In this document: one piece after another, positions 1 through 8,229 of the stretch
How the letters are laid out: each line of letters opens with the position of its first letter
How positions within the stretch are numbered: the first letter of the stretch is position 1
IMG/VR virus record: IMGVR_UViG_2645727970_000010
Span: 1 to 8,229 of that record
Source of the DNA: a virus
Lineage: Duplodnaviria > Heunggongvirae > Uroviricota > Caudoviricetes
Reading direction: 5' to 3' (one strand)
Length of the DNA stretch: 8,229 nt
Notes under the pieces: model-generated
The model's input: the letters and a program-made list of their open reading frames with translations, nothing else
What the model was told of the DNA's origin: nothing
Database searches by the model: none
Made by a program: the position numbers and the translations under genes

Positions 1-2040
1 AGTCTTACTAAATTCCGGTCCCATATCTCCGGTTTGCGGATCGAAAAATATTGCACCTATTGAGATGATCGGGGCATCAGGATTTTTTCCCATGGTTTCA
101 AGGTCGATCATTAGATGGTCACACGTCCTGCTGGTGGATGTGATTTCGTGATGACCGTTCACATTAATTAAGGGATCTGTCGCCTCGCCAGTTTCATTAT
201 CGCTATCGTAATGCTGATTGCCGCCAGGGTTCTCCTTGTGTGGATGTTCAGCGCCTTCCATTTCCTCCGGATCATTTTCCTGAACTTCAACCTGATTCTC
301 TTCATTGAATGTTTCCTGGTATGTTGCGTCGCCCATCACAACACCACAATCAGGGCAGTTGCCGCCGCCGCTCTGACCGCAGGCGGTGCAGATTTTTTCC
401 GCTTCCTGTTGCGCTACTGGCTCAGGTTGTTTCGTTTCTGGCTCGTTTTGTAACGCATTTGGGCTGTTTTGTTCCGCTTTCTGGTCGTTCTGTTCCGTTT
501 CTTGCTGGTTCTGGTTCACTGAATCGCGGGTTTCAATCCCCTTCACCCATTTCGGATCATTCGGATCGCTAATCCCTGCAACAAATTCACCACGTGATAC
601 AGCAAGCAACTGATTGGCGTCAGGCTGGCTGATATTGGCTGCCTGCATAATTTTGTTTACTTCGTCAGCGGTAATTTTTACCGGCTCTGGTTGTGCGGTC
701 GTGTCAGATGCACCAGTATTTTGTTGTGAACCTGAGTATGTACCGTTTTTGCGGGCGAAATATTCTTCTTTCGTAATTTCAGTAGCCCCGGCAGCCAGCG
801 CCTTATCCAGACCAGAAAGTTTGTTTGCGCGACCGTATTTTTCGCCATCCTTGTCGGTAAAGAGGAAGTAGAACGGCCCCTCACGCTCTACAGATGGTTC
901 GACTTCCACTTTGCATTCAGTTTTTTCGTTGTCCGGAATTGCCGTTTCCACTGCATCAGTTTCTGGTACTGGCGACGAGAGAGTATCAGTTGCGCTCTGA
1001 TTTGTTCCTTCATCTTCAAACACGCCCTTTGTAGTCAGGTATTTAGTAATGTATTTGTTCAGTGCCACAGGGTCTTTGTGAATGTCGATCGGACGTTCAC
1101 GGACAAGGCCAAAAATAGTCTGGCGGTCGTAGCGAAGGGCATCAGGCTGTTTGCGCATTGATGCCGAGATACGCTTCCAGTCTTCGCGGTCGTTGTCGAT
1201 AACTTCATTTCTTGCCCAGCGATGGATGCTGCCGTCAATGTTTCCGGCATCCACATCACCAGGCCAGAGGGCGTAGGCCAGTTCGTCATCCAGTGTTTTC
1301 CATGTCTGCTTGTATTCGCGATGAGTGGCAGCAATGACCGGGTTGATTTTTCCTGTTGAATTTTCAGTGTGCTGTTGATTGGCTCCGGCGCGGGCGAGAT
1401 CAACAACAGACGTGTATTTTCCGGTTTCCTTGCGTTCATTTTCGCGACGTTTTTTCCAGATGCGCATCTCTGCCTGAATTTCGGGCCATTTAGCTCCAGG
1501 ATTACATTTATGTTTAACCCACCCGATGGCATGCAGCTTAAGCTCCGGATACATGGCGTTAACTTCTGGCATTTTCATCAACGCTTCAACGATATGTCCG
1601 TCGAATGTTGCCATGTCTTCCTGCAACAATTCCTGTGCGCTAATAACCATATCAACGGTGATGTTTTCACATGTGTCGAACTTAACCATGACAGCGTTCT
1701 GTACTTCAGGGGCCAGCTTGTCAAAAGTGACGTTCATCGGATAGGATTCAGTCTCAACCGGGACAAAAGAAGCAGACTCCTCATCCCAACGGTTTTCCTG
1801 CATATATTCAGCATCCCAGGAATCGAGGGCAGGGCGGGGTATACCAGGTTTATCCTCGCAAACAAGAAATTTATAAGCGCAGTCCTGAGCAACCGGATAA
1901 TGTTCCAGGAATTGCCAGTGAAATTTTGCGCGGGCGCGACATTCATCACCGGCTTCAATGGCAGTGGCTACAGCGACTGCACCTTCTTCCTTTATTGCCT
2001 GTTCGTCCGGAATGGCGGCGCAAATAAAGACTTTACTCAT
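1..2040 (-). CDS. RecE-like exonuclease (exonuclease VIII family) candidate; N-terminal ~680 codons, C-terminus beyond window start
   Basis: Uninterrupted minus-strand frame from ATG at 2040 (MSKVFICAAIPDEQ...) to position 1, spot-checked by hand at 1-120, 301-420, 541-660, 1021-1080 and 1921-2040. GAGG about 10 nt upstream of the ATG. Motif GEFVAGISDPNDPKWVKG, a Q/E-rich linker, a CxxC-x7-CxxC zinc-ribbon-like motif (ICTACGQSGGGNCPDCG) and, at the window edge, a DEDD-exonuclease-like motif (LMIDLETMG). The track omits it because no stop lies in the window. Product is recalled similarity plus synteny, not a search. Confidence 0.7.
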   Translation of the reverse strand, partial: MSKVFICAAIPDEQAIKEEGAVAVATAIEAGDECRARAKFHWQFLEHYPVAQDCAYKFLVCEDKPGIPRPALDSWDAEYMQENRWDEESASFVPVETESYPMNVTFDKLAPEVQNAVMVKFDTCENITVDMVISAQELLQEDMATFDGHIVEALMKMPEVNAMYPELKLHAIGWVKHKCNPGAKWPEIQAEMRIWKKRRENERKETGKYTSVVDLARAGANQQHTENSTGKINPVIAATHREYKQTWKTLDDELAYALWPGDVDAGNIDGSIHRWARNEVIDNDREDWKRISASMRKQPDALRYDRQTIFGLVRERPIDIHKDPVALNKYITKYLTTKGVFEDEGTNQSATDTLSSPVPETDAVETAIPDNEKTECKVEVEPSVEREGPFYFLFTDKDGEKYGRANKLSGLDKALAAGATEITKEEYFARKNGTYSGSQQNTGASDTTAQPEPVKITADEVNKIMQAANISQPDANQLLAVSRGEFVAGISDPNDPKWVKGIETRDSVNQNQQETEQNDQKAEQNSPNALQNEPETKQPEPVAQQEAEKICTACGQSGGGNCPDCGVVMGDATYQETFNEENQVEVQENDPEEMEGAEHPHKENPGGNQHYDSDNETGEATDPLINVNGHHEITSTSRTCDHLMIDLETMGKNPDAPIISIGAIFFDPQTGDMGPEFSKT

Positions 2041-2133
2041 TTTGTTTTAACCTCATGACAGATTTAAGGGTGAACAAATCCCTGCCATTGCTGGCATATA
2101 AGAATGAAATCGGATGTTTATTACGGAACTGTT

Positions 2134-2325
2134 TTAAAGACCTGCCGGGATTTCGTTATTATCCTGGTGAATAACTTTATCGACCGGGTAACAGTTACCG
2201 GGAATTTTCTGTTCGGTTGCTGCAGTCACACACTCCTGCATTGTCCTGTGAACACTGACTGCAATATCAACTGGCTCTCCGGAAACAAGAAAAACTGTCA
2301 GAACAAGTGCAAATGCTGTATTCAT
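2134..2325 (-). CDS. Hypothetical small protein (63 aa) with N-terminal hydrophobic signal or membrane-anchor segment
   Basis: ATG at 2325 overlaps the upstream stop as ATGA (coupling). AAGGA-like SD 8 nt upstream. Sequence MNTAFALVLTVFLVSGEPVD... has a hydrophobic stretch and two Cys in the mature part. The track's 81-aa version starts further upstream without an SD. Confidence 0.45.
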   Translation of the reverse strand: MNTAFALVLTVFLVSGEPVDIAVSVHRTMQECVTAATEQKIPGNCYPVDKVIHQDNNEIPAGL

Positions 2326-2510
2326 TGCCACCATCCTTTTTGTATCGGACGTAAACGGGCCAGCATTGAAAGAATGCATATTTTATTTAATAGCTCCCGT
2401 TCTTGTTTTCTCTTGTTAATGGCATCTTCAGTAAATACTGGGTTACTGATAGTGACACCAATTTCAAAACAACCTTCAGACGTATTAACGTTTGGTAATA
2501 ACGTTTTCAT
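2322..2510 (-). CDS. Hypothetical small protein (62 aa), first gene of a leftward small-gene pair
   Basis: Internal ATG at 2510 preceded by GAGGA (complement of 2518-2522) at about 7 nt; the track's 97-aa start at 2615 has no SD. Stop at 2322-2324 overlaps the next start. Confidence 0.5.
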   Translation of the reverse strand: MKTLLPNVNTSEGCFEIGVTISNPVFTEDAINKRKQERELLNKICILSMLARLRPIQKGWWQ

Positions 2511-2546
2511 TATCGCGTCCTCAATAATGAATTTTGTGATGCAGTG

Positions 2547-2586
2547 CCTGGTGCCTCCAGGTGACGTTAACCAGTTAACAATTAAC
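2547..2586. repeat. Palindrome CCTGG-TGCCT-CCAGG followed by three TTAAC repeats at 7-8 bp spacing
   Basis: Read directly: cctggtgcctccagg at 2547-2561; GTTAAC at 2566-2571 and 2574-2579, ATTAAC at 2581-2586. Lies just upstream (minus sense) of the 2510 start; candidate regulatory site. Confidence 0.3.
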
Positions 2587-2858
2587 GCCGGATACAGAGA
2601 ATCCACCCATAACACTGTTTTTGGTTTTAACTGTTCCGCGTGCGCTCAGCCGCATTCACCGCATCACAAAATTCACTTTAAAAAGGGCGGACATCAGCCA
2701 GCAATGAAACTGATGCCGCCAAAGGTACCAATCAACATGGAGTGTTGTGGCAGGGGTGTCACTTAAGCGTATGGTCAACCTGACAACCCGGTGTCCTCAA
2801 CGGGGAAGGAATAACCCCGCCATACTTACCGCCGCGCCATTTCGCGGGTTGCCACAAC

Positions 2859-2926
2859 CGGAAGCGCACGGTCGAATTAAATTTAACGACACCGTACAGT
2901 GAGACGAACTTCGCCGTGCGCTTTCG
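2859..2926. other. Long inverted repeat (10 perfect bp, up to 13 bp with one G-U; ~42-nt loop) in a hairpin-rich non-coding region
   Basis: aagcgcacgg at 2862-2871 pairs with ccgtgcgctt at 2914-2923. Two GC hairpins lie nearby: cgggg/ccccg at 2801-2819 and ccgcg/cgcgg at 2832-2847. No credible ORF here. Confidence 0.4.
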
Positions 2927-3002
2927 TGTTGTGTGCCTGCTTTTAACCACGTCAGGCGAGGTGGTATCCTTCTTATCCCGAATAACCAAGAAGGAAATCT
3001 AT

Positions 3003-3203
3003 ATGACTAAAGAAGAATTTGTCTCTTATATTTTTGATAAAACGGTTGAAATGTATGCCGCTACTTACGGGTCCTGTAATCCTCTGAATAAACCAGAGGG
3101 GAAAGATGATTTCGACAAAATTTACCGCTTCTTGGAGGACCGCTATATCAAAAGGTTAGAGGACGCAGGGATCAAATCCCCAGTGACGTCACCATTGTCC
3201 TGA
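3003..3203 (+). CDS. Hypothetical small soluble protein (66 aa)
   Basis: ATG at 3003 with AAGGAA SD 6 nt upstream. Sequence MTKEEFVSYIFDKTVEMYAATYGSCNPLNK.... 3' end overlaps the convergent minus-strand gene by 32 bp. The track's 95-aa version starts at a non-ATG codon. Confidence 0.5.
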   Translation: MTKEEFVSYIFDKTVEMYAATYGSCNPLNKPEGKDDFDKIYRFLEDRYIKRLEDAGIKSPVTSPLS

Positions 3204-3537
3204 GAACTTGCAGGACGTCATGATCGTAACTTCCATCCAAACCGCGACGGCAAATTGCTTCTCGTATTACCGGAAGCAGTTCGCTGGAAATCTCGGTGCA
3301 TATTTCACCTGATAATACGCTTGGCTCAAGTGAGAATATTGGTGAACTTACGGTCTTGGTCTCGACAGTTTCAGAGTCAGTGCCAACATTATAAAGCTCA
3401 ACGAAAGCGGTCTTGATTTTCCGGGCCAGATCTTTTGCTGGCTCGCTTGCAATATCTTTCCCGATTTCTCGCAGCACAGAATGCAATGTATGAGCTGCTG
3501 TTTTCTGTACATCAGACGGTAAATCTTTAAATTCCAT
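3172..3537 (-). CDS. Hypothetical acidic protein (121 aa; 125 aa if started at 3549)
   Basis: Only long ORF in this span. ATG at 3537 has GAGG 6 nt upstream; the alternative ATG at 3549 shares its A with the upstream gene's stop (3549-3551). No recognisable motif. Confidence 0.55.
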   Translation of the reverse strand: MEFKDLPSDVQKTAAHTLHSVLREIGKDIASEPAKDLARKIKTAFVELYNVGTDSETVETKTVSSPIFSLEPSVLSGEICTEISSELLPVIREAICRRGLDGSYDHDVLQVLRTMVTSLGI

Positions 3538-3548
3538 CGTCAGCCTCA

Positions 3549-3701
3549 TCAGTCAGTGTTTCTGGCTAACCAGCAACGCGCGCCAGATTCGGTTTTAAAC
3601 GTTTTGCTTTTGGTATATGTCATCGCGGTGAACGTACCGTCTTGGTTGGGGAACACGGCACATACTAGAGATTCGCTGTTGCCAAGATCGATAGTATCCA
3701 T
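3549..3701 (-). CDS. Hypothetical small protein (50 aa), first gene of a two-gene operon downstream of the repressor
   Basis: ATG at 3701 preceded by GAGG at 5 nt; the track's longer form starts at GTG 3755 with no SD. Sequence MDTIDLGNSESLVCAVFPNQDGTFTAMTYTKSKTFKTESGARCWLARNTD. A competing antisense plus-strand ORF (3556..3780) exists. Confidence 0.45.
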   Translation of the reverse strand: MDTIDLGNSESLVCAVFPNQDGTFTAMTYTKSKTFKTESGARCWLARNTD

Positions 3702-3778
3702 GCTGACCTCATTTCCCCTTAACGCCGGGGTAGCGGAACTGTTTGCTGAGAACACCGTGCGGTGTCTTGATGGAAAGT

Positions 3779-3807
3779 AATTTAGAATAACCTAACATAA
3801 GAGGCAA
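3779..3807 (-). promoter_or_regulatory. Candidate leftward promoter (minus strand): -35 TTGCCT, 17-bp spacer, -10 TAAATT
   Basis: By-eye match on the minus strand; the -10 overlaps the 3781-3796 site and the -35 sits 10 bp from the 3817-3832 site, so repressor binding would occlude it. Weak consensus. Confidence 0.25.
3781..3796. promoter_or_regulatory. Candidate operator half-site pair TTTAGA-ATAA-CCTAAC (imperfect 6-4-6 palindrome)
   Basis: Matches the GTTAGA-N4-TCTAAC pattern at 5/6 per half-site; overlaps the -10 of a candidate leftward promoter. Confidence 0.45.
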
Positions 3808-3816
3808 GTGTTTTTT

Positions 3817-3832
3817 GTTAGATTGATCTAAC
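3817..3832. promoter_or_regulatory. Candidate operator GTTAGA-TTGA-TCTAAC (perfect 6-4-6), inside a 26-bp extended palindrome (3812-3837)
   Basis: Read directly; the arms extend as tttttgttagat / atctaacaaaaa. Confidence 0.5.
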
Positions 3833-3869
3833 AAAAAGAGTGGGCGCAACTAATCACTTGAAAAGAATG

Positions 3870-4277
3870 TTATTTTATTGATTTATTTTTACGCGCTTTA
3901 AGCATTTCTTCGAAGAGTTTGTTGAAGTTTTCTACTCTTGCGCGCATTTCAGACAGCAAGGCTTCCTGCTCGGAAGATGGAAGAGCATCGAATAATTCGA
4001 TCAATTCTTTGTGGTTGGGAGTTAGCTCTGTTTCCACATGAAGTTCTTGTGCCGGCACTGGTGCCTTGTCTTCGTCACCAAACATTAGCCATGTAGGTGA
4101 GCACTTCAGAGCATCCGCTAAAGCAAACAATCGTTTTCCGACTGGCTGGGTTTCGTCTCTTTCCCATTGTGAAATTGTGACGTGAGCAACTCCAGCGAGG
4201 CGCGCAGCTTCTCGTTGTGTTAAGCGTAATTCTTTTCGTCGCGCCAGAACTCGCTGGCCTAGGGTTCTTGTATCCAT
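3870..4277 (-). CDS. Prophage repressor, XRE-family HTH (CI/RacR-like), 135 aa, no S24 peptidase domain
   Basis: HTH signature LRLTQREAARLAGVAHVTISQWERDETQP. Divergent from a Cro-like gene with palindromic operators in the 77-bp spacer. No obvious SD; a TAGAAT -10 sits 9 nt before the ATG, suggesting a near-leaderless transcript. Too short and without the Ser/Lys motifs of an autocleaving repressor. Confidence 0.85.
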   Translation of the reverse strand: MDTRTLGQRVLARRKELRLTQREAARLAGVAHVTISQWERDETQPVGKRLFALADALKCSPTWLMFGDEDKAPVPAQELHVETELTPNHKELIELFDALPSSEQEALLSEMRARVENFNKLFEEMLKARKNKSIK

Positions 4278-4278
4278 A

Positions 4279-4294
4279 GTTAGGTAATTCTAAT
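4279..4294. promoter_or_regulatory. Candidate operator GTTAGG-TAAT-TCTAAT (imperfect 6-4-6)
   Basis: Two bp upstream of the repressor start codon; overlaps the candidate repressor-gene -10 (TAGAAT on minus strand). Confidence 0.45.
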
Positions 4295-4298
4295 TTTT

Positions 4299-4327
4299 CT
4301 TGACTTAGGTATCCCGCGCACAATAAT
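4299..4327 (+). promoter_or_regulatory. pR-like rightward promoter: -35 TTGACT (4299-4304), 17-bp spacer, -10 AATAAT (4322-4327)
   Basis: Near-consensus sigma70 hexamers with correct spacing, upstream of the Cro-like gene; the next operator starts right after the -10. Confidence 0.5.
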
Positions 4328-4343
4328 GTTAGAAAAGTCTAAC
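4328..4343. promoter_or_regulatory. Candidate operator GTTAGA-AAAG-TCTAAC (perfect 6-4-6) at the rightward promoter start region
   Basis: Read directly; abuts the -10 and covers the expected transcription start. Confidence 0.5.
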
Positions 4344-4357
4344 AAGAGGGGGCTTTG

Positions 4358-4585
4358 ATGCTTAAAGCTGACGCAATTACTTTTTTTGGCAGCAAAACAA
4401 AGCTTGCCAATGCCGCAGGAGTGAGACTGGCAAGTGTTGCTGCTTGGGGGATACTGGTTCCTGAAGGTCGCGCGATGCGTCTACAGGAGGCATCTGGCGG
4501 GGAGCTTCAGTATGATCCCAAAGTTTATGACGAATATCGTAAGACGAAGCGGGCGGGGCGGTTGAACAATGAAAATCACTCCTGA
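4358..4585 (+). CDS. Cro-like / YdaS-family small HTH regulator (75 aa)
   Basis: ATG at 4358 with AGAGGGGG SD 5 nt upstream. Sequence AITFFGSKTKLANAAGVRLASVAAWGILVPEGRAMRLQEASGGEL resembles the YdaS/Cro pattern. Position is right for the first rightward gene. Confidence 0.7.
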   Translation: MLKADAITFFGSKTKLANAAGVRLASVAAWGILVPEGRAMRLQEASGGELQYDPKVYDEYRKTKRAGRLNNENHS

Positions 4586-5090
4586 ACAGGCTTGTGAGGC
4601 TCTGGATGCCTGGATATGTCGACCAGGAATGACACAGGAGCAGGCGACGATATTAATCACTGAAGCATTCTGGGCTTTGAAAGAGCGCCCGAACATCGAT
4701 GTTCAGCGTGTCACATATGAAGGTGGCGCGGTTGATCAGCGAGCGCTTAGCGTTAATCGAGTGAAGATATTCGAACGCTGGAAGGCTATCGACACTAGGG
4801 ATAAGCGTGAAAAGTTCACAGCGCTAGTGCCTGCAATTATGAAGGCTATCCGGATTAGTGATTTCAGGTTGTATCGTGAGATCAGTGATGGAAAAAGTAT
4901 TACGTACATGATCGCCGGGTTAAATAAAGAATATGGCGATGTGGTGGAATCCGGACTACTTTTTGCAGATCCTGCCGTTGTAGATCGTGAAACTGACGAA
5001 CTTATAGAAAAAGCAATTGCTTTCAAGCTTGCGTATCGACAGCAATACCAACAAAAAGCTGGATGGAATTATGAGTCTTCTTTTTGCTGA
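4569..5090 (+). CDS. YdaT-like / CII-position protein (173 aa), function uncertain
   Basis: ATG at 4569 overlaps the Cro-like 3' end by 17 nt. Sits in the YdaT/CII slot between cro-like and the replication gene. Family assignment is from synteny, not a search. Confidence 0.55.
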   Translation: MKITPEQACEALDAWICRPGMTQEQATILITEAFWALKERPNIDVQRVTYEGGAVDQRALSVNRVKIFERWKAIDTRDKREKFTALVPAIMKAIRISDFRLYREISDGKSITYMIAGLNKEYGDVVESGLLFADPAVVDRETDELIEKAIAFKLAYRQQYQQKAGWNYESSFC

Positions 5091-6036
5091 ACGCCCACTG
5101 GTTATAAACACGCAGCTGGCAATGAAAATCGGCTTAAACGAAGCCATTGTTTTGCAACAACTGCACTACTGGTTGAGAGATACCAACTCCGGTATGGAAT
5201 GTGATGGTGTTCGCTGGATTTATAACACAACGGAACAATGGCTGGAACAGTTCCCATTCTGGTCAGAGTCAACGTTAAAGCGCGCGTTTGCAAGTCTGAA
5301 AACGCTGGGGCTTTTGCGTTGTGAAAAGCTCAATAAATCAAAGCGCGATATGACCAATTTCTACACGATCAACTATGGGAGCGAGCTTTTAGATGGTGGC
5401 AAATTGAACGAATCCATCGGTTCAAAATGCGCCGCTCCATCAGGTCAAAATGACACGATGGAAGAGGTCAAAATGAAACGCTCCATTGGTTCAAAACGAC
5501 CCAATGTCATCGGGTCAAAATGGCCTGATGATCTTACAGAGAATACAACAGAGATTACTACAGAGAATAAAAACACTTTTCGTCCGGAAGCTTCGCAACC
5601 GGACCCGCAGACGACTGAACAGGATTTTTTAACCCGGAACCCCGACGCGGTTGTGTTTAGTGTGAAAAAACGCCAGTGGGGTAGCAGGGAGGATTTGGCG
5701 TGTGCGCAGTGGATTTGGGGGCGGATCGTGAACCTTTACGAACAGGCTGCCAGCGACGATGGAGAGATCATGCGACCAAAAGAGCCTAACTGGACAGCCT
5801 GGGCCAATGACGTGCGCACAATGCGGATGCTGGATGGCAGAAGCCACAGACAAATTTGCGAAATGTTTGGTCGGGTACAGCGGGATCCATTCTGGGTAAA
5901 AAACATCATGAGCCCGTCAAAACTCCGCGAAAAATGGGACGAACTGGTCATCCGCCTGGGACGTTCACCTGTACAGCGTTGTGTGAATCATATTTCTGAA
6001 CCGGATACAGAAATTCCGCCTGGTTTCAGGGGATAA
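5071..6036 (+). CDS. Replication initiation protein, lambda O-like / YdaU-position (321 aa from ATG 5071)
   Basis: Long ORF overlapping the upstream gene by 20 nt. N-terminal winged-helix-like segment (ERPLVINTQLAMKIGLNEAIVLQQLHYWL). Tandem iterons inside the coding sequence produce the SIGSK / SIGSKRP / VIGSKWP protein repeats. The track's TTG start at 5017 is less likely. Confidence 0.7.
   Translation: MSLLFAERPLVINTQLAMKIGLNEAIVLQQLHYWLRDTNSGMECDGVRWIYNTTEQWLEQFPFWSESTLKRAFASLKTLGLLRCEKLNKSKRDMTNFYTINYGSELLDGGKLNESIGSKCAAPSGQNDTMEEVKMKRSIGSKRPNVIGSKWPDDLTENTTEITTENKNTFRPEASQPDPQTTEQDFLTRNPDAVVFSVKKRQWGSREDLACAQWIWGRIVNLYEQAASDDGEIMRPKEPNWTAWANDVRTMRMLDGRSHRQICEMFGRVQRDPFWVKNIMSPSKLREKWDELVIRLGRSPVQRCVNHISEPDTEIPPGFRG
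5413..5585. repeat. Candidate origin of replication: five direct iterons (~17-bp core TCCATCGGTTCAAAATG, period 23-25 bp) plus AT-rich tract
   Basis: Iterons start at 5413, 5436, 5459 (degenerate), 5482 and 5507. The AT-rich tract 5530-5580 carries acagagaata twice. Iterons-then-AT-rich inside the initiator gene is the lambda ori layout. Confidence 0.65.
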
Positions 6037-6076
6037 GTGTTGATTTCAGGTCATGAGGTAATTTTAAGGGGGACTT

Positions 6077-6478
6077 GTGGCAAAAGTTTTTACACAAGAA
6101 GAGCGGGAAAAAATTAAAGGGCAGGTGGTGGAACTCGTGCGCCAGAGCGGTCGTGAGACGTTACGGCAACTGGAAGCTAAAACAGGTGCGACTAGATATC
6201 TGATGAGCGTTCTTGCCAGAGAGCTGGTAGCCAGTGGCGATGTATACAACTCCGGCTACGGGGTATTCCCGTCTGAACAGGCGCGTAAGGACTGGCAAAA
6301 CGCCCGCAAAAAACTCTCGAGGGCAAAGGTGAAGAAACCTGCTGTGGTTGATCCGGACCTTATCTGGTCATTACCTGACGGAGAAATACGTCGCTACGAC
6401 AGTCGTCTGAACATAATCTGTCGCGAGTGCCGGAAGAGTGAAGTTATGCAGCGCATACTGGCATTTTATCAGGGATAA
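6077..6478 (+). CDS. Hypothetical protein (133 aa), GTG start, in the slot normally held by a helicase loader
   Basis: GTG at 6077 with AAGGGGGA SD 3-4 nt upstream; no in-frame ATG until codon 43. Basic, possibly winged-helix N-terminus and CxxC near the C-terminus. Not recognised. Confidence 0.55.
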   Translation: MAKVFTQEEREKIKGQVVELVRQSGRETLRQLEAKTGATRYLMSVLARELVASGDVYNSGYGVFPSEQARKDWQNARKKLSRAKVKKPAVVDPDLIWSLPDGEIRRYDSRLNIICRECRKSEVMQRILAFYQG

Positions 6479-6751
6479 TGTTAGGTATTTTAGACGTTAC
6501 TAGATTAAAAAGCATTAGTTCAGGAGTGAATTGACATTCTCATTTTTCATGGCACAGGGTAGATCTGGCGTGGTTGTCCGCTTTGTACCAGGAGCAGACG
6601 TCTAATATATCTACTTGGTTCTTAAATTCAGTGCATCACTGCAAGCTGCTCAACATCAATAAATTAGGGAATAACTCACAACTTTGACTGTTACCACATG
6701 GCATCATAGTGTTTAGAGCATGCATAAGCACCAACGAGGAGTTTTAACATA

Positions 6752-7339
6752 ATGGGACTGGATGATTTCGGCCTTAGTATCTTAGCCGGACTTCTTGCAA
6801 ACAGACTTGATTTCTCAAAACCGAAGGGCACCTCAGCTCAAATGAATGAAGTTATACCAGATGTGATTGAAGAACCAGACAAATTCTCGCTAAGTGCAAA
6901 TTTGCCAAAAAAATTCAAGACATTCGACGTATGGAGTGATTTGGACAAATTGCTAAAGGTTGTGAAAGAACCCAAAATATCTGTTTTGATAGAGGAGCAA
7001 CCATCAACGTACTATCGGCTCCCTAGCTTGGTTCTGGAATCTCAAATCACAGGGGAATGGTATGTTTTCCCGCGAGGCCGCATGAGTTTTGAGGGCAATG
7101 GAGGTGGCATACAGAACGCAGAAGTAATCTTCAATCAGTTGAAAGAAGAAAATGTTCCGGTGGGAGTATGGGTAATCGATCAAGCTCTTCTCGACCGCCT
7201 CGATAACGGACAAGAATGTTGGCCAACCATACGATTACAAATAGTACCATTCTTGGCCGCACCATCGAGCGAATACCCATGGTTCGAAATACAACGAAAC
7301 GTTGCAAAACTCACAGAATTCCATTTGACTAATGATTAA
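6752..7339 (+). CDS. Hypothetical protein (195 aa), orphan cargo gene in an AT-richer segment
   Basis: Clean ORF, ATG at 6752 with GAGGAG SD 10 nt upstream. Composition is AT-richer than the flanking prophage genes by eye (not computed). No Walker, HEPN, HTH or hydrophobic signature found. Confidence 0.7.
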   Translation: MGLDDFGLSILAGLLANRLDFSKPKGTSAQMNEVIPDVIEEPDKFSLSANLPKKFKTFDVWSDLDKLLKVVKEPKISVLIEEQPSTYYRLPSLVLESQITGEWYVFPRGRMSFEGNGGGIQNAEVIFNQLKEENVPVGVWVIDQALLDRLDNGQECWPTIRLQIVPFLAAPSSEYPWFEIQRNVAKLTEFHLTND

Positions 7340-7620
7340 TAGTGAGCCCTAACAGGATAATGGCACACTGGATATGACCACCTAAGCAGAGGCAGTACAG
7401 GGGTAATAAACTATGAACTCCTGCTTTTCGCTCAAAGCGGACTAGAAGGTTAGCTTGTGTCGGACTTTGCGTATTAAAAGAAGTGCTGGTGGTGACTAGT
7501 GGTTGAGCCCCATTTCCACAGAAAAAATCAGAGAAACTATACCCAATAGTTGCATTGAATCACTGACGAGACAGCCTCATATTCATCAGGACTGGTGTAC
7601 ATCCAATACAGGAGGTTGTG

Positions 7621-7710
7621 GTGCTGGTTCTCAAATGTGCGCTGGCTATTACGGCTGTAATGGCGATTTATTGTCTTGCTATTGTTCTTATGGATCGCCT
7701 TTCTGACTGA
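7621..7710 (+). CDS. Candidate small hydrophobic peptide (29 aa), GTG start
   Basis: Perfect AGGAGG SD (7610-7615), 5-nt spacer, GTG at 7621. Translation (M)LVLKCALAITAVMAIYCLAIVLMDRLSD is one predicted membrane helix. Overlaps the frame-0 track ORF 7503..7706 (TTG start, Cys/Gly-rich). Candidate -35 TTGAAT / -10 CATATT at 7555-7583. Very uncertain. Confidence 0.25.
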   Translation: MLVLKCALAITAVMAIYCLAIVLMDRLSD

Positions 7711-7764
7711 TTTCATATTGGCGAGGTAACGGGAGTTAAGTAGAATGGCTGCGGGTGCTTGAGG

Positions 7765-7800
7765 CTATCTGCCTCAGGCATGAACACCAACGGCAGATAG
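7765..7800. other. Hairpin with 9-bp perfect stem (ctatctgcc / ggcagatag) and 18-nt loop
   Basis: Read directly. A second small hairpin gcgtc-ctgcaa-gacgc (7824-7839) is flanked by direct repeats TTAACATTA (7814-7822, 7840-7848). Could be IS terminus, transposase terminator or the small-ORF transcript 3' structure. Confidence 0.35.
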
Positions 7801-7862
7801 AGAAAAGCCCCAGTTAACATTACGCGTCCTGCAAGACGCTTAACATTAATCTGAGGCCAATT

Positions 7863-8229
7863 TCATGCTAGACACATGTAGGTTAGCCTCTTACGTGCCG
7901 AAAGGCAAGGAGATGTATGGGTCCACCACATATTGCAATTTTTATTCTCTTTTAAAATATATTCCACGGGCGTCATTAGTGCGAGCGCCTTGTGGGGTCT
8001 TTTGCTGTTATACAGCACCAGATATTCCGCCAGCTTCTGGTTAAATAGCGCCAGATCTTCAAAGAGTAAAATCTCATTAAATTCAATAAACTGCTCTCTT
8101 AACGTCCGGTTAAAACGTTCACAGATAGCGTTCATTTTTGGCGTGTAGGGATAGGTCCAGAGGTGTTTGATAGCGGCTTCCTGCAGCGTTTTGTCGAAGT
8201 TTCCCAGGAACTCTTTTCCGTTATCTGTG
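7863..8229 (-). CDS. DDE transposase, rve/integrase-core type (IS481-family-like), C-terminal part; N-terminus beyond window end
   Basis: Hand translation upstream of the track ORF gives ...TDNGKEFLGNFDKTLQEAAIKHLWTYPYTPKMNAICERFNRTLREQF...YNSKRPHKALALMTPVEY, carrying the second D (TDNGKEF) and the E (CERFNRTL) of the DDE triad plus the conserved YNxxRPHxxLxxxTP tail. Frame is open to position 8229. Confidence 0.8.
   Translation of the reverse strand, partial: TDNGKEFLGNFDKTLQEAAIKHLWTYPYTPKMNAICERFNRTLREQFIEFNEILLFEDLALFNQKLAEYLVLYNSKRPHKALALMTPVEYILKENKNCNMWWTHTSPCLSARKRLTYMCLA

Follow-up and report, generated by a model that had tools for sequence, protein, structure and literature searches.

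How does a lambdoid prophage start its replication when its O-like initiator gene is followed by no recognisable helicase-loader gene, and where does it start? This question is raised by an 8,229-nt stretch of DNA (IMG/VR virus record IMGVR_UViG_2645727970_000010, positions 1 to 8,229; hereafter the window), which represents the immunity and replication region of an Escherichia prophage (lambdoid, Rac-type). Its initiator gene (Table 1) contains five tandem repeats followed by an AT-rich tract, for which an initial annotation, made from the sequence alone, had proposed an origin of the lambda type. Every computational test available supported this proposal: the initiator is homologous to lambda O in its C-terminal domain, the array has the same relative position in the gene as in lambda, the region is constrained at the level of DNA, and the iterons vary together with the N-terminal domain of the initiator. 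The stretch 5415-5604 is, most probably, the replication origin of this Rac-type lambdoid prophage or phage, placed where its own initiator gene encodes a linker between domains.

The repeat array was found independently by a repeat search and by Tandem Repeats Finder (TRF; period 23, score 71), which bears out the five repeats reported inside the initiator gene. Five adjoining 23-mers (5415-5530), of the general form CATCrGGTCA-AAA-TGACnyGATG, make up the array in its best register; the TCAAAA cores are at 5422, 5445, 5468, 5491, and 5515, so the spacings are 23, 23, 23, and 24 bp (the last had been given as 25 bp). The consensus CATYRGKTCAAAAYG has four matches with at most two mismatches in the window, all within the array, as compared with 0.30 expected, and none of 200 shuffles reached four matches; this test is partly circular, since the consensus was built from the array copies themselves. 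We scored dyad symmetry as the number of matching positions in the 10-nt arms around the central AAA. A score of 8/10 is reached by 0.13% of the 23-mers in the window, and three of the five units (2, 4, and 5) reach it in exact register (P = 2.4e-8). The repeats had been described as direct rather than internally palindromic; because of the dyad symmetry of these three units, they resemble the iterons of lambda and are not simply direct.

An AT-rich tract following the iterons had also been noted, and it proved to be more structured than described: where two copies of acagagaata had been seen, there are three tandem 12-mers (ACAGAGAATACA, ACAGAGATTACT, and ACAGAGAATAAA, at 5536-5547, 5548-5559, and 5560-5571; TRF period 12, 2.8 copies). 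The GC content of 5525-5574 (0.32) is the lowest of all 50-nt windows between 5000 and 6100, the tract has an AT skew of +0.41, and the least stable 40-mer of the initiator gene is located at 5534-5573 (z = 3.1), at a relative position of 0.48, compared with 0.49 in lambda. A GC-rich near-palindrome directly to the right of the tract may be the right boundary of the origin; lambda has a palindrome at the equivalent place. A promoter and terminator scan around the origin gave nothing above chance except for one promoter, pR-like and upstream of cro (4300-4327), and an Rfam scan of the origin region gave no RNA family.

We then consider the protein in which these elements are encoded. The whole initiator matches PHROG 391 (“replication initiation O-like”) with E = 1.9e-92, and its residues 147-294 share 34% identity with lambda O (BLASTP, E = 1e-27); a Pfam scan of the protein gave no match, RepA_N included. 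Structure prediction by AlphaFold2 gave an N-terminal and a C-terminal domain separated by a disordered linker, and the iterons as well as the AT-rich tract lie within the linker-coding segment, with the array at nt 345-460 of the 966-nt gene. Because the linker (amino acids 110-175) is predicted to be disordered, the coding constraint on it is expected to be minimal. In a Foldseek search with the N-terminal domain, the corresponding domains of plasmid RepA initiators, which bind iterons, rank first (4pql, 4pt7, and 5kbj; E = 0.017-0.2, probability 1.0), and generic winged-helix regulators rank next. A helix region of this domain (L16-W34) is nearly invariant among 31 homologues. A protein search with the N-terminal domain only, which returned mostly gene fragments of <200 amino acids, was used solely to deepen the alignment for structure prediction. 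We presume that the N-terminal domain is the module that recognises the iterons.

Since 23 is not a multiple of three, the repeat is read in three frames (1, 0, 2, 1, and 1 for units 1 to 5). The initial annotation had the repeats translated as SIGSK-type protein repeats, which is true of units 1, 4, and 5 (these share a frame and encode (S)IGSK), but not of units 2 and 3, which are read as SGQN and EVKM. This partial agreement, together with the differing copy numbers among relatives and a natural variant without four of the units (see below), could suggest that the repeats are a slippage by-product of a low-complexity SIGSK linker, with no cis-acting function. We find this barely credible, considering that two units are in other frames, that the DNA is dyad-symmetric while the peptide is predicted to be disordered, and that the periodicity never arises when the protein sequence is kept: the period-23 autocorrelation is 0.67, compared with 0.49 ± 0.03 (maximum 0.61) in synonymous-codon shuffles, which keep the protein sequence, and none of the 500 shuffles reached the observed value.

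Sequence diversity among natural copies speaks to the same point (75 copies of the 321-residue gene, representing 53 distinct alleles). The two folded domains and the C-terminal tail show the usual signature of protein-level selection, with diversities at third positions and at positions 1+2 of 0.110 and 0.012 (N-terminal domain), 0.160 and 0.026 (C-terminal domain), and 0.199 and 0.016 (tail, the strongest protein-level constraint in the gene). This codon periodicity is lost in 5398-5595, where the corresponding values are 0.024 and 0.027 for the iterons, 0.006 and 0.023 for the AT-rich tract, and 0.056 and 0.068 for the next 60 nt of the linker. Synonymous-site diversity of the origin stretch is 5-25 times below that of the folded domains; of the third positions, 11 out of 56 vary in the origin, as against 137 out of 243 in the tail and folded domains taken together (Fisher p = 5.6e-7), and the linker just 3′ of the origin is freely variable (25 out of 60 sites, versus 32 out of 168; p = 9e-4). 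Since third positions are as constrained as positions 1+2 in a linker that is predicted to be disordered, the origin region is constrained as DNA, where the protein tolerates almost any sequence.

We also checked if the arrays of relatives follow the initiator (one genome per species was scanned, giving 79 loci). All relatives whose initiators have the “MSLL...” class of N-terminal domain (47-73% identical; found in Rahnella, Edwardsiella, Scandinavium, Proteus, Citrobacter, Raoultella, and Izhakiella) contain an array of period 23, placed at 0.31-0.37 of the gene. The core GGTCAAAATGAC is kept in these arrays, and the outer arms are lineage-specific (CATC..GATG, CAAG..GTTG, or GAAC..GTTC). 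The 12-mer TACAGAGAaTAC, in two to five copies, goes with the same N-terminal class whatever the class of the C-terminal tail. Initiators with other N-terminal classes contain their own repeats of four to eight copies at the same place in the gene, for example TGCGG..CCGCAAAC (period 23), TAAGCCGAA..AAACGGCTCT (period 22), CGCGAAATCGCGGAAC (period 22), and, in lambda, ATCCCTCAAAACGAGGGA. Such modular co-variation would follow from recognition of the iterons by the N-terminal domain, with domain, iterons, and unwinding tract forming one specificity cassette. The number of 12-mers varies among the relatives (four in L007, five in the Edwardsiella locus L009, and two to three elsewhere), which indicates in-frame expansion and contraction of the putative unwinding tract.

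The same comparison bears on whether another protein of the locus binds the iterons in place of the N-terminal domain of the initiator. The product of the next gene (DUF977) has a weak match to phrog_2391 (“DNA binding protein”), and YdaT, the counterpart of the YdaT/CII-like protein, carries the annotation of a DNA-binding transcriptional activator in the record of K-12. However, loci of Citrobacter, Raoultella, and Izhakiella (L018-L021) have near-identical iterons and no DUF977 gene within 2.5 kb 3′ of the initiator (blastx), and iterons and 12-mers follow the N-terminal class across differing tail classes and downstream genes (the comparison was confined to genes downstream). Binding by either of these two proteins is thus very unlikely, and the N-terminal domain of the initiator is the better candidate.

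A natural allele encoding 290 amino acids (P0016-P0021; for example, P0018 is located at L165:1380-2252) has lost exactly 93 nt with the frame kept, leaving one hybrid iteron made of the left part of iteron 1 and the right part of iteron 5. The allele is probably dead as an origin and yet competent as a protein. It parallels the in-frame origin deletions of lambda, some of which leave O able to complement in trans, while the prophages r95 and r96 are defective in initiation at ori-lambda (PMC6022878).

Could the repeats instead be sites of the initiator or of a regulator with a role other than origin function (autoregulation, copy-number or incompatibility titration, or phage exclusion), with the origin located elsewhere? 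Iteron arrays of plasmids also serve control and incompatibility, plasmid-borne fragments of the lambda origin inhibit related phages (PMC3349717 and PMC4488673), and a replication start at 5415-5604 is a prediction. On the other hand, the array and the gene's least stable DNA are fused in the order and position known from the mapped origin of lambda; the iterons and the 12-mer tract are inherited together; and the search for consensus matches found no second iteron cluster in the window. We consider a purely non-origin role improbable. With 5415-5604 as the origin, dimers of the N-terminal winged-helix domain would bind the five near-palindromic 23-bp iterons, whose arms (CATCrGGTCA) flank the A-tract and whose spacing of ∼23 bp is about two helical turns. 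The resulting nucleoprotein complex, like the lambda O-some, would bend the DNA and melt the A-rich 12-mer tract, and the host DnaB helicase would be loaded there, with no P protein, unlike in lambda. In place of the acidic-aromatic tail of lambda O, a DnaT-like peptide at the C-terminus would connect the initiator to host DnaB/DnaC or PriA.

Several observations weigh against this picture. Iteron binding, unwinding, and origin firing are all deduced from sequence. The match between the N-terminal domain and the RepA fold is marginal (E = 0.017; template-modelling score 0.56 on the target), and at the sequence level no relationship of the domain to the N-terminal one of lambda O is detectable. 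Iterons 1 and 3, with dyad scores of 6/10 and 5/10, may be weak or non-functional sites, and the AT-rich tract is only ∼68-72% AT, slightly below the 78% of lambda. Diversity is uneven along the gene, being low also at nt 151-260 of the N-terminal domain, so that recombination history could contribute to the low diversity of the origin; such a history would not, however, erase codon-position periodicity. In favour of a working origin, the phages mEp460_ev081, HannyBb, and PhiR42_1, which are functional, carry the same initiator and DUF977 module with 97% DNA identity; in mEp460_ev081 and HannyBb, the two whose neighbourhoods were inspected, no loader gene is nearby.

Comparison to known systems places the origin among those of the lambdoid kind, in which iterons of 19 bp, imperfect inverted repeats with an A-tract at the centre, lie together with an AT-rich region in the middle of O (PMC7466680). 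The window origin is similar to lambda ori and to those of the Shiga toxin (Stx) phages P27 and 933W (6 iterons) in having imperfect inverted-repeat iterons of 18-23 bp with a central A-tract; it is also similar to lambda ori in their spacing (∼20-24 bp), in the least stable, A-rich DNA of the gene lying to the right, and in its location in a mid-initiator linker between a DNA-binding N-terminal domain and a homologous C-terminal domain. It differs from lambda ori in that its N-terminal domain is unrelated in sequence, its five 23-bp iterons have other arms, its AT-rich tract is built from three 12-mers, P is absent, and the initiator ends in a DnaT-like tail rather than in ..DWIYGVDL.

The Gram-positive RepA_N plasmids (pSK41 and pTZ2162 RepA), which supply the best Foldseek matches to the N-terminal domain, offer another likeness. 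RepA_N replicons have an iterated origin inside the rep gene, between the parts encoding a DNA-binding N-terminal domain and a host-specific C-terminal domain. They differ from the window system in that the structural match is marginal, the window initiator has a C-terminal domain of lambda O type, and the hosts are other ones. The Rac prophage of K-12 (ydaS-ydaT-ydaU-ydaV-ydaW, with oriJ) shares the repressor, Cro/YdaS, YdaT, and DUF977/YdaW genes with the window; its initiator YdaU, however, belongs to DUF1376 and is followed by the DnaC-like YdaV. We considered oriJ as a direct precedent and rejected it: because K-12 YdaU is of another family, and neither ydaU nor ydaV contains a 23-bp array according to TRF, the oriJ literature does not describe the window origin. 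Our literature searches found no description of iterons, 12-mers, or an origin of the window type, nor of a role for the tail. Computational evidence strongly supports a predicted lambdoid origin whose initiator N-terminal domain and iteron specificity are undescribed and whose putative unwinding tract is built of 12-mers. The origin itself is a further example of the classic lambda-type design, of use mainly for annotation; numerous records of E. coli genomes and of phages give the initiator as “hypothetical protein” or “Primosomal protein I.”

The second part of the question concerns the helicase loader. No obvious loader gene had been seen after the initiator, and none was found here: the next gene encodes DUF977, and there are no P, DnaC, or DnaB genes in the window, nor near the module in mEp460_ev081 and HannyBb. 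The module is of the O-only lambdoid type, in which a lambda O homologue is the sole replication gene. According to a 2025 paper (PMC12315714), 34 out of 314 Enterobacterales lambdoid phages have an O homologue only, phages LLS and mEp460_4F5 are among those with such modules, and O-only replication is said to be one that “is not yet understood.” The 133-residue product of the next gene had been called unrecognised; it is DUF977 (Pfam PF06163, E = 1.6e-28), also known as YdaW, “LygF,” or PHROG 142 “Ren-like exclusion protein” (E = 3.5e-45), and its gene occupies the place of ren in lambda. We tried DUF977 as a hidden loader and rejected it, because it directly follows only three out of 18 non-redundant initiators with a DnaT-like tail and is absent beside most of the related loader-less initiators; the genes after the remaining ones encode unrelated families (DUF1627, PerC-like proteins, methyltransferases, and a ParB-type helix-turn-helix (HTH) domain). 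In Shigella phage 75/02 Stx, DUF977 is encoded two genes past a DnaC-like gene. DUF977 is probably outside the origin and initiator machinery.

PerC-like proteins deserve a separate mention. Proteins of 139-164 amino acids with a weak PerC-like match are encoded after the DnaT-tail initiators at five loci (L017, L021, L022, L024, and L031); at three of the five, the gene overlaps the stop codon of the initiator, as P does in lambda. No such gene is present in the window. This protein could be a partner protein in those five modules.

What replaces P in the window system may lie in the initiator itself. Its last 21 residues are nearly identical to those of E. coli DnaT (VNHISEPDTEIPPGFRG in the initiator, VNTVSEPDSQIPPGFRG in DnaT), matching the C-terminal residues of the DnaT chains 2ru8, 6aep, and 9zbt and positions 160-179 of the NCBIfam DnaT model. 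The initiator scores only 16.3 bits against this model (cut-off 201), as only the last 20-21 residues align; the name “Primosomal protein I” in phage records is owed to the DnaT-like tail alone, and identification of the initiator as DnaT is a misannotation.

We sorted the non-redundant loci by tail and next gene, in a census that is not corrected for shared ancestry (a weakness of the association that follows). Initiators with a W-containing acidic tail (..HWNSxEAWExxL, assigned by reading the sequences, or ..DWIxGVDL) are found at 38 loci, and a P gene overlaps or abuts the stop codon in all 38 (P was identified by Pfam PF06992 for the 12 proteins scanned, and by blastx against those 12 for the rest). 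Tails of the type ..IPxGFR[GSTV] are found at 18 loci, none followed by P; the next gene is DnaC/IstB-like in two, DUF977 in three, and something else in 13, so that 16 have no recognisable loader. The seven loci with a longer C-terminal extension have no P. The rule that ties P to tail type has a single possible exception, L032 (Citrobacter sp. Cu233), where an initiator with a DnaT tail has a weak P-like blastx match (E = 4e-13) 958 nt 3′. In a third class of O-like proteins (363-385 amino acids; L009, L011-L015, L038-L040, and L042-L043, from Proteus, Edwardsiella, Sodalis, Acerihabitans, and Morganella), the C-terminal extension ends in ..WNSIWKQ.. or ..IWAECSQR.., and there is no P gene 3′.

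The DnaT-like tail is also found on unrelated initiators. K-12 Rac YdaU (L164:2620-3477), a DUF1376 protein, ends in ..VNTVSLPDSAIPPGFRG, the same tail (..PDSAIPPGFRG), and its gene is followed by that of YdaV; such tails also end gpO of Gifsy-2 and the Shigella phage 75/02 Stx initiator, each followed by a DnaC-like gene, and the SPN1S initiator has the tail and no loader. Three more PHROG families contain the tail, and initiators of Stx-converting phages have it too. From these associations we infer that the tail may pick the loading system, with the DnaT type linking the initiator to DnaB/DnaC or PriA without P.

How the tail would do so is less certain. One idea, which we hold tentatively and with slightly less than even confidence, is that the last ∼20 residues of DnaT (..PDxxIPPGFRG) are a portable docking peptide for DnaB/DnaC that was captured by several unrelated families of phage initiators. 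PMC13377028, PMC4132743, PMC4129139, PMC5778457, and PMC13220808 give no partner for the last 20 residues of DnaT and establish no function for its extreme C-terminus, and the partner proposed for the tail of the initiator is therefore a guess. Truncation data indicate that the C-terminal part of DnaT contributes to cooperative binding of single-stranded DNA (ssDNA), and the N-terminal domain of DnaT, not the tail, has been proposed as a possible recruiter of DnaB/DnaC (PMC13377028, 2026). Alternatively, the origin may be correctly placed while the tail serves something other than helicase recruitment (ssDNA cooperativity at the melted tract, or diversion of PriA/PriB), with loading by way of, for example, host DnaA or transcription. 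This seems to us less likely than not, given that a change of tail type goes cleanly with the gain or loss of P, that the tail goes with DnaC-like genes on unrelated initiator scaffolds, and that DnaA boxes are not enriched near the origin (two matches, compared with 0.94 expected by chance).

If the docking peptide is real, it would let a lambdoid phage dispense with P, which would explain the O-only modules and point to how DnaT hands the preprimosome to DnaB/DnaC, and in lambda-type O proteins the choice of P would be determined by the extreme C-terminal tail. The lambda mutation Oam205 is an amber at codon 295, which removes the last five residues (PMC6022878, Table 1); as a classical O amber mutation it presumably abolishes O function, and if so, the extreme C-terminus matters in lambda too. 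The contrast between lambda-type tails with P and DnaT-type tails without it provides a testable mechanism for the loader-less lambdoids (∼1/9 of the lambdoid phages of Enterobacterales; PMC12315714). It also provides a natural experiment to tell by which of its parts DnaT makes contact with the helicase-loading machinery, a matter still called unknown in a 2026 structural paper.

Table 1. Coordinates of the features of the initiator locus, in positions of the window (dyad scores as defined in the text; pLDDT, predicted local distance difference test; aa, amino acids).
Feature	Coordinates	Strand	Sequence	Basis or remark
HTH repressor gene	3870-4277	-		
Cro/YdaS-like gene	4355-4585	+		
YdaT/CII-like gene	4569-5090	+		
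Lambda-O-like initiator gene, 321 aa	5071-6036	+		PHROG 391; BLASTP against lambda O
Winged-helix DNA-binding N-terminal domain, aa 1-110	5071-5400	+		AlphaFold2 pLDDT 77-90
Predicted disordered inter-domain linker, aa 110-175	5398-5595	+		AlphaFold2 pLDDT 25-46
Iteron 1	5415-5437		CATCGGTTCAAAATGCGCCGCTC	Dyad 6/10
Iteron 2	5438-5460		CATCAGGTCAAAATGACACGATG	Dyad 8/10; lowest variation of all units among alleles (pi 0.006)
Iteron 3	5461-5483		GAAGAGGTCAAAATGAAACGCTC	Dyad 5/10; outer arms degenerate
Iteron 4	5484-5506		CATTGGTTCAAAACGACCCAATG	Dyad 8/10; centre TCAAAACGA in common with lambda iterons
Iteron 5	5508-5530		CATCGGGTCAAAATGGCCTGATG	Dyad 8/10; adjoins the AT-rich tract
AT-rich tract, presumed DNA-unwinding element	5531-5580			Top strand A-rich; three tandem 12-mers
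GC-rich near-palindrome	5582-5604		GTCCGGAAGCTTCGCAACCGGAC	7/9 arm positions match; GC 0.58-0.60
C-terminal domain of lambda O type, aa ~180-297	5608-5961	+		Helical model, pLDDT 55-82
C-terminal tail	5971-6033	+	VQRCVNHISEPDTEIPPGFRG	Mimic of the DnaT C-terminus (last 21 residues, E. coli); presumed to dock onto helicase-loading machinery of the host or, of DnaC type, of a phage
DUF977 / YdaW / “LygF” gene, 133 aa	6077-6478	+		Pfam PF06163; PHROG 142

The start codon of the initiator gene is probably the ATG at 5071, which is used by homologues and in annotated phages (the same coding sequence is annotated in mEp460_ev081 and HannyBb); the TTG at 5017 listed by the ORF (open reading frame) finder is probably not used. 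The module is widespread: an identical initiator protein is encoded in an E. ruysiae genome (L004), E. coli NZ_CP090612.1 has 100% DNA identity to 5017-6478 of the window, and initiator and DUF977 DNA is present at ≥80% coverage in 1587 out of 5426 complete E. coli genomes. Two contigs with the Escherichia prophage module (L005 and L007; 95-97% identity) were binned in metagenome-assembled genomes of Bacillota and Veillonella parvula; these taxon labels are probably due to mis-binning. Similarly, the loci L076-L082 (with the labels Kitasatospora, Pseudoxanthomonas, Shewanella, Chromatiales, Pseudomonas, and Leeuwenhoekiella) contain O and P genes identical or nearly identical to those of lambda, some on very short contigs, and are most likely contamination with lambda DNA; the E. 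albertii contig L080, whose O protein differs at one amino acid, could be a genuine prophage.

Two other elements of the window were noted. A tandem array at 427-510 (period 21, four copies, 71% matches, consensus TTGTTCCGCTTTCTGGCTCGTT), far from the origin, lies in a region without a convincing ORF assignment. Rfam places a sok antitoxin RNA, in full length, at 7753-7919 (+) (RF01794, 111.9 bits, E = 1.7e-25), which suggests a putative hok/sok-type toxin-antitoxin locus; the RNA overlaps a 90-residue integrase-core (rve_3/rve_2) transposase fragment on the opposite strand (7863-8135), and related phages have an annotated MokW gene at the equivalent position.

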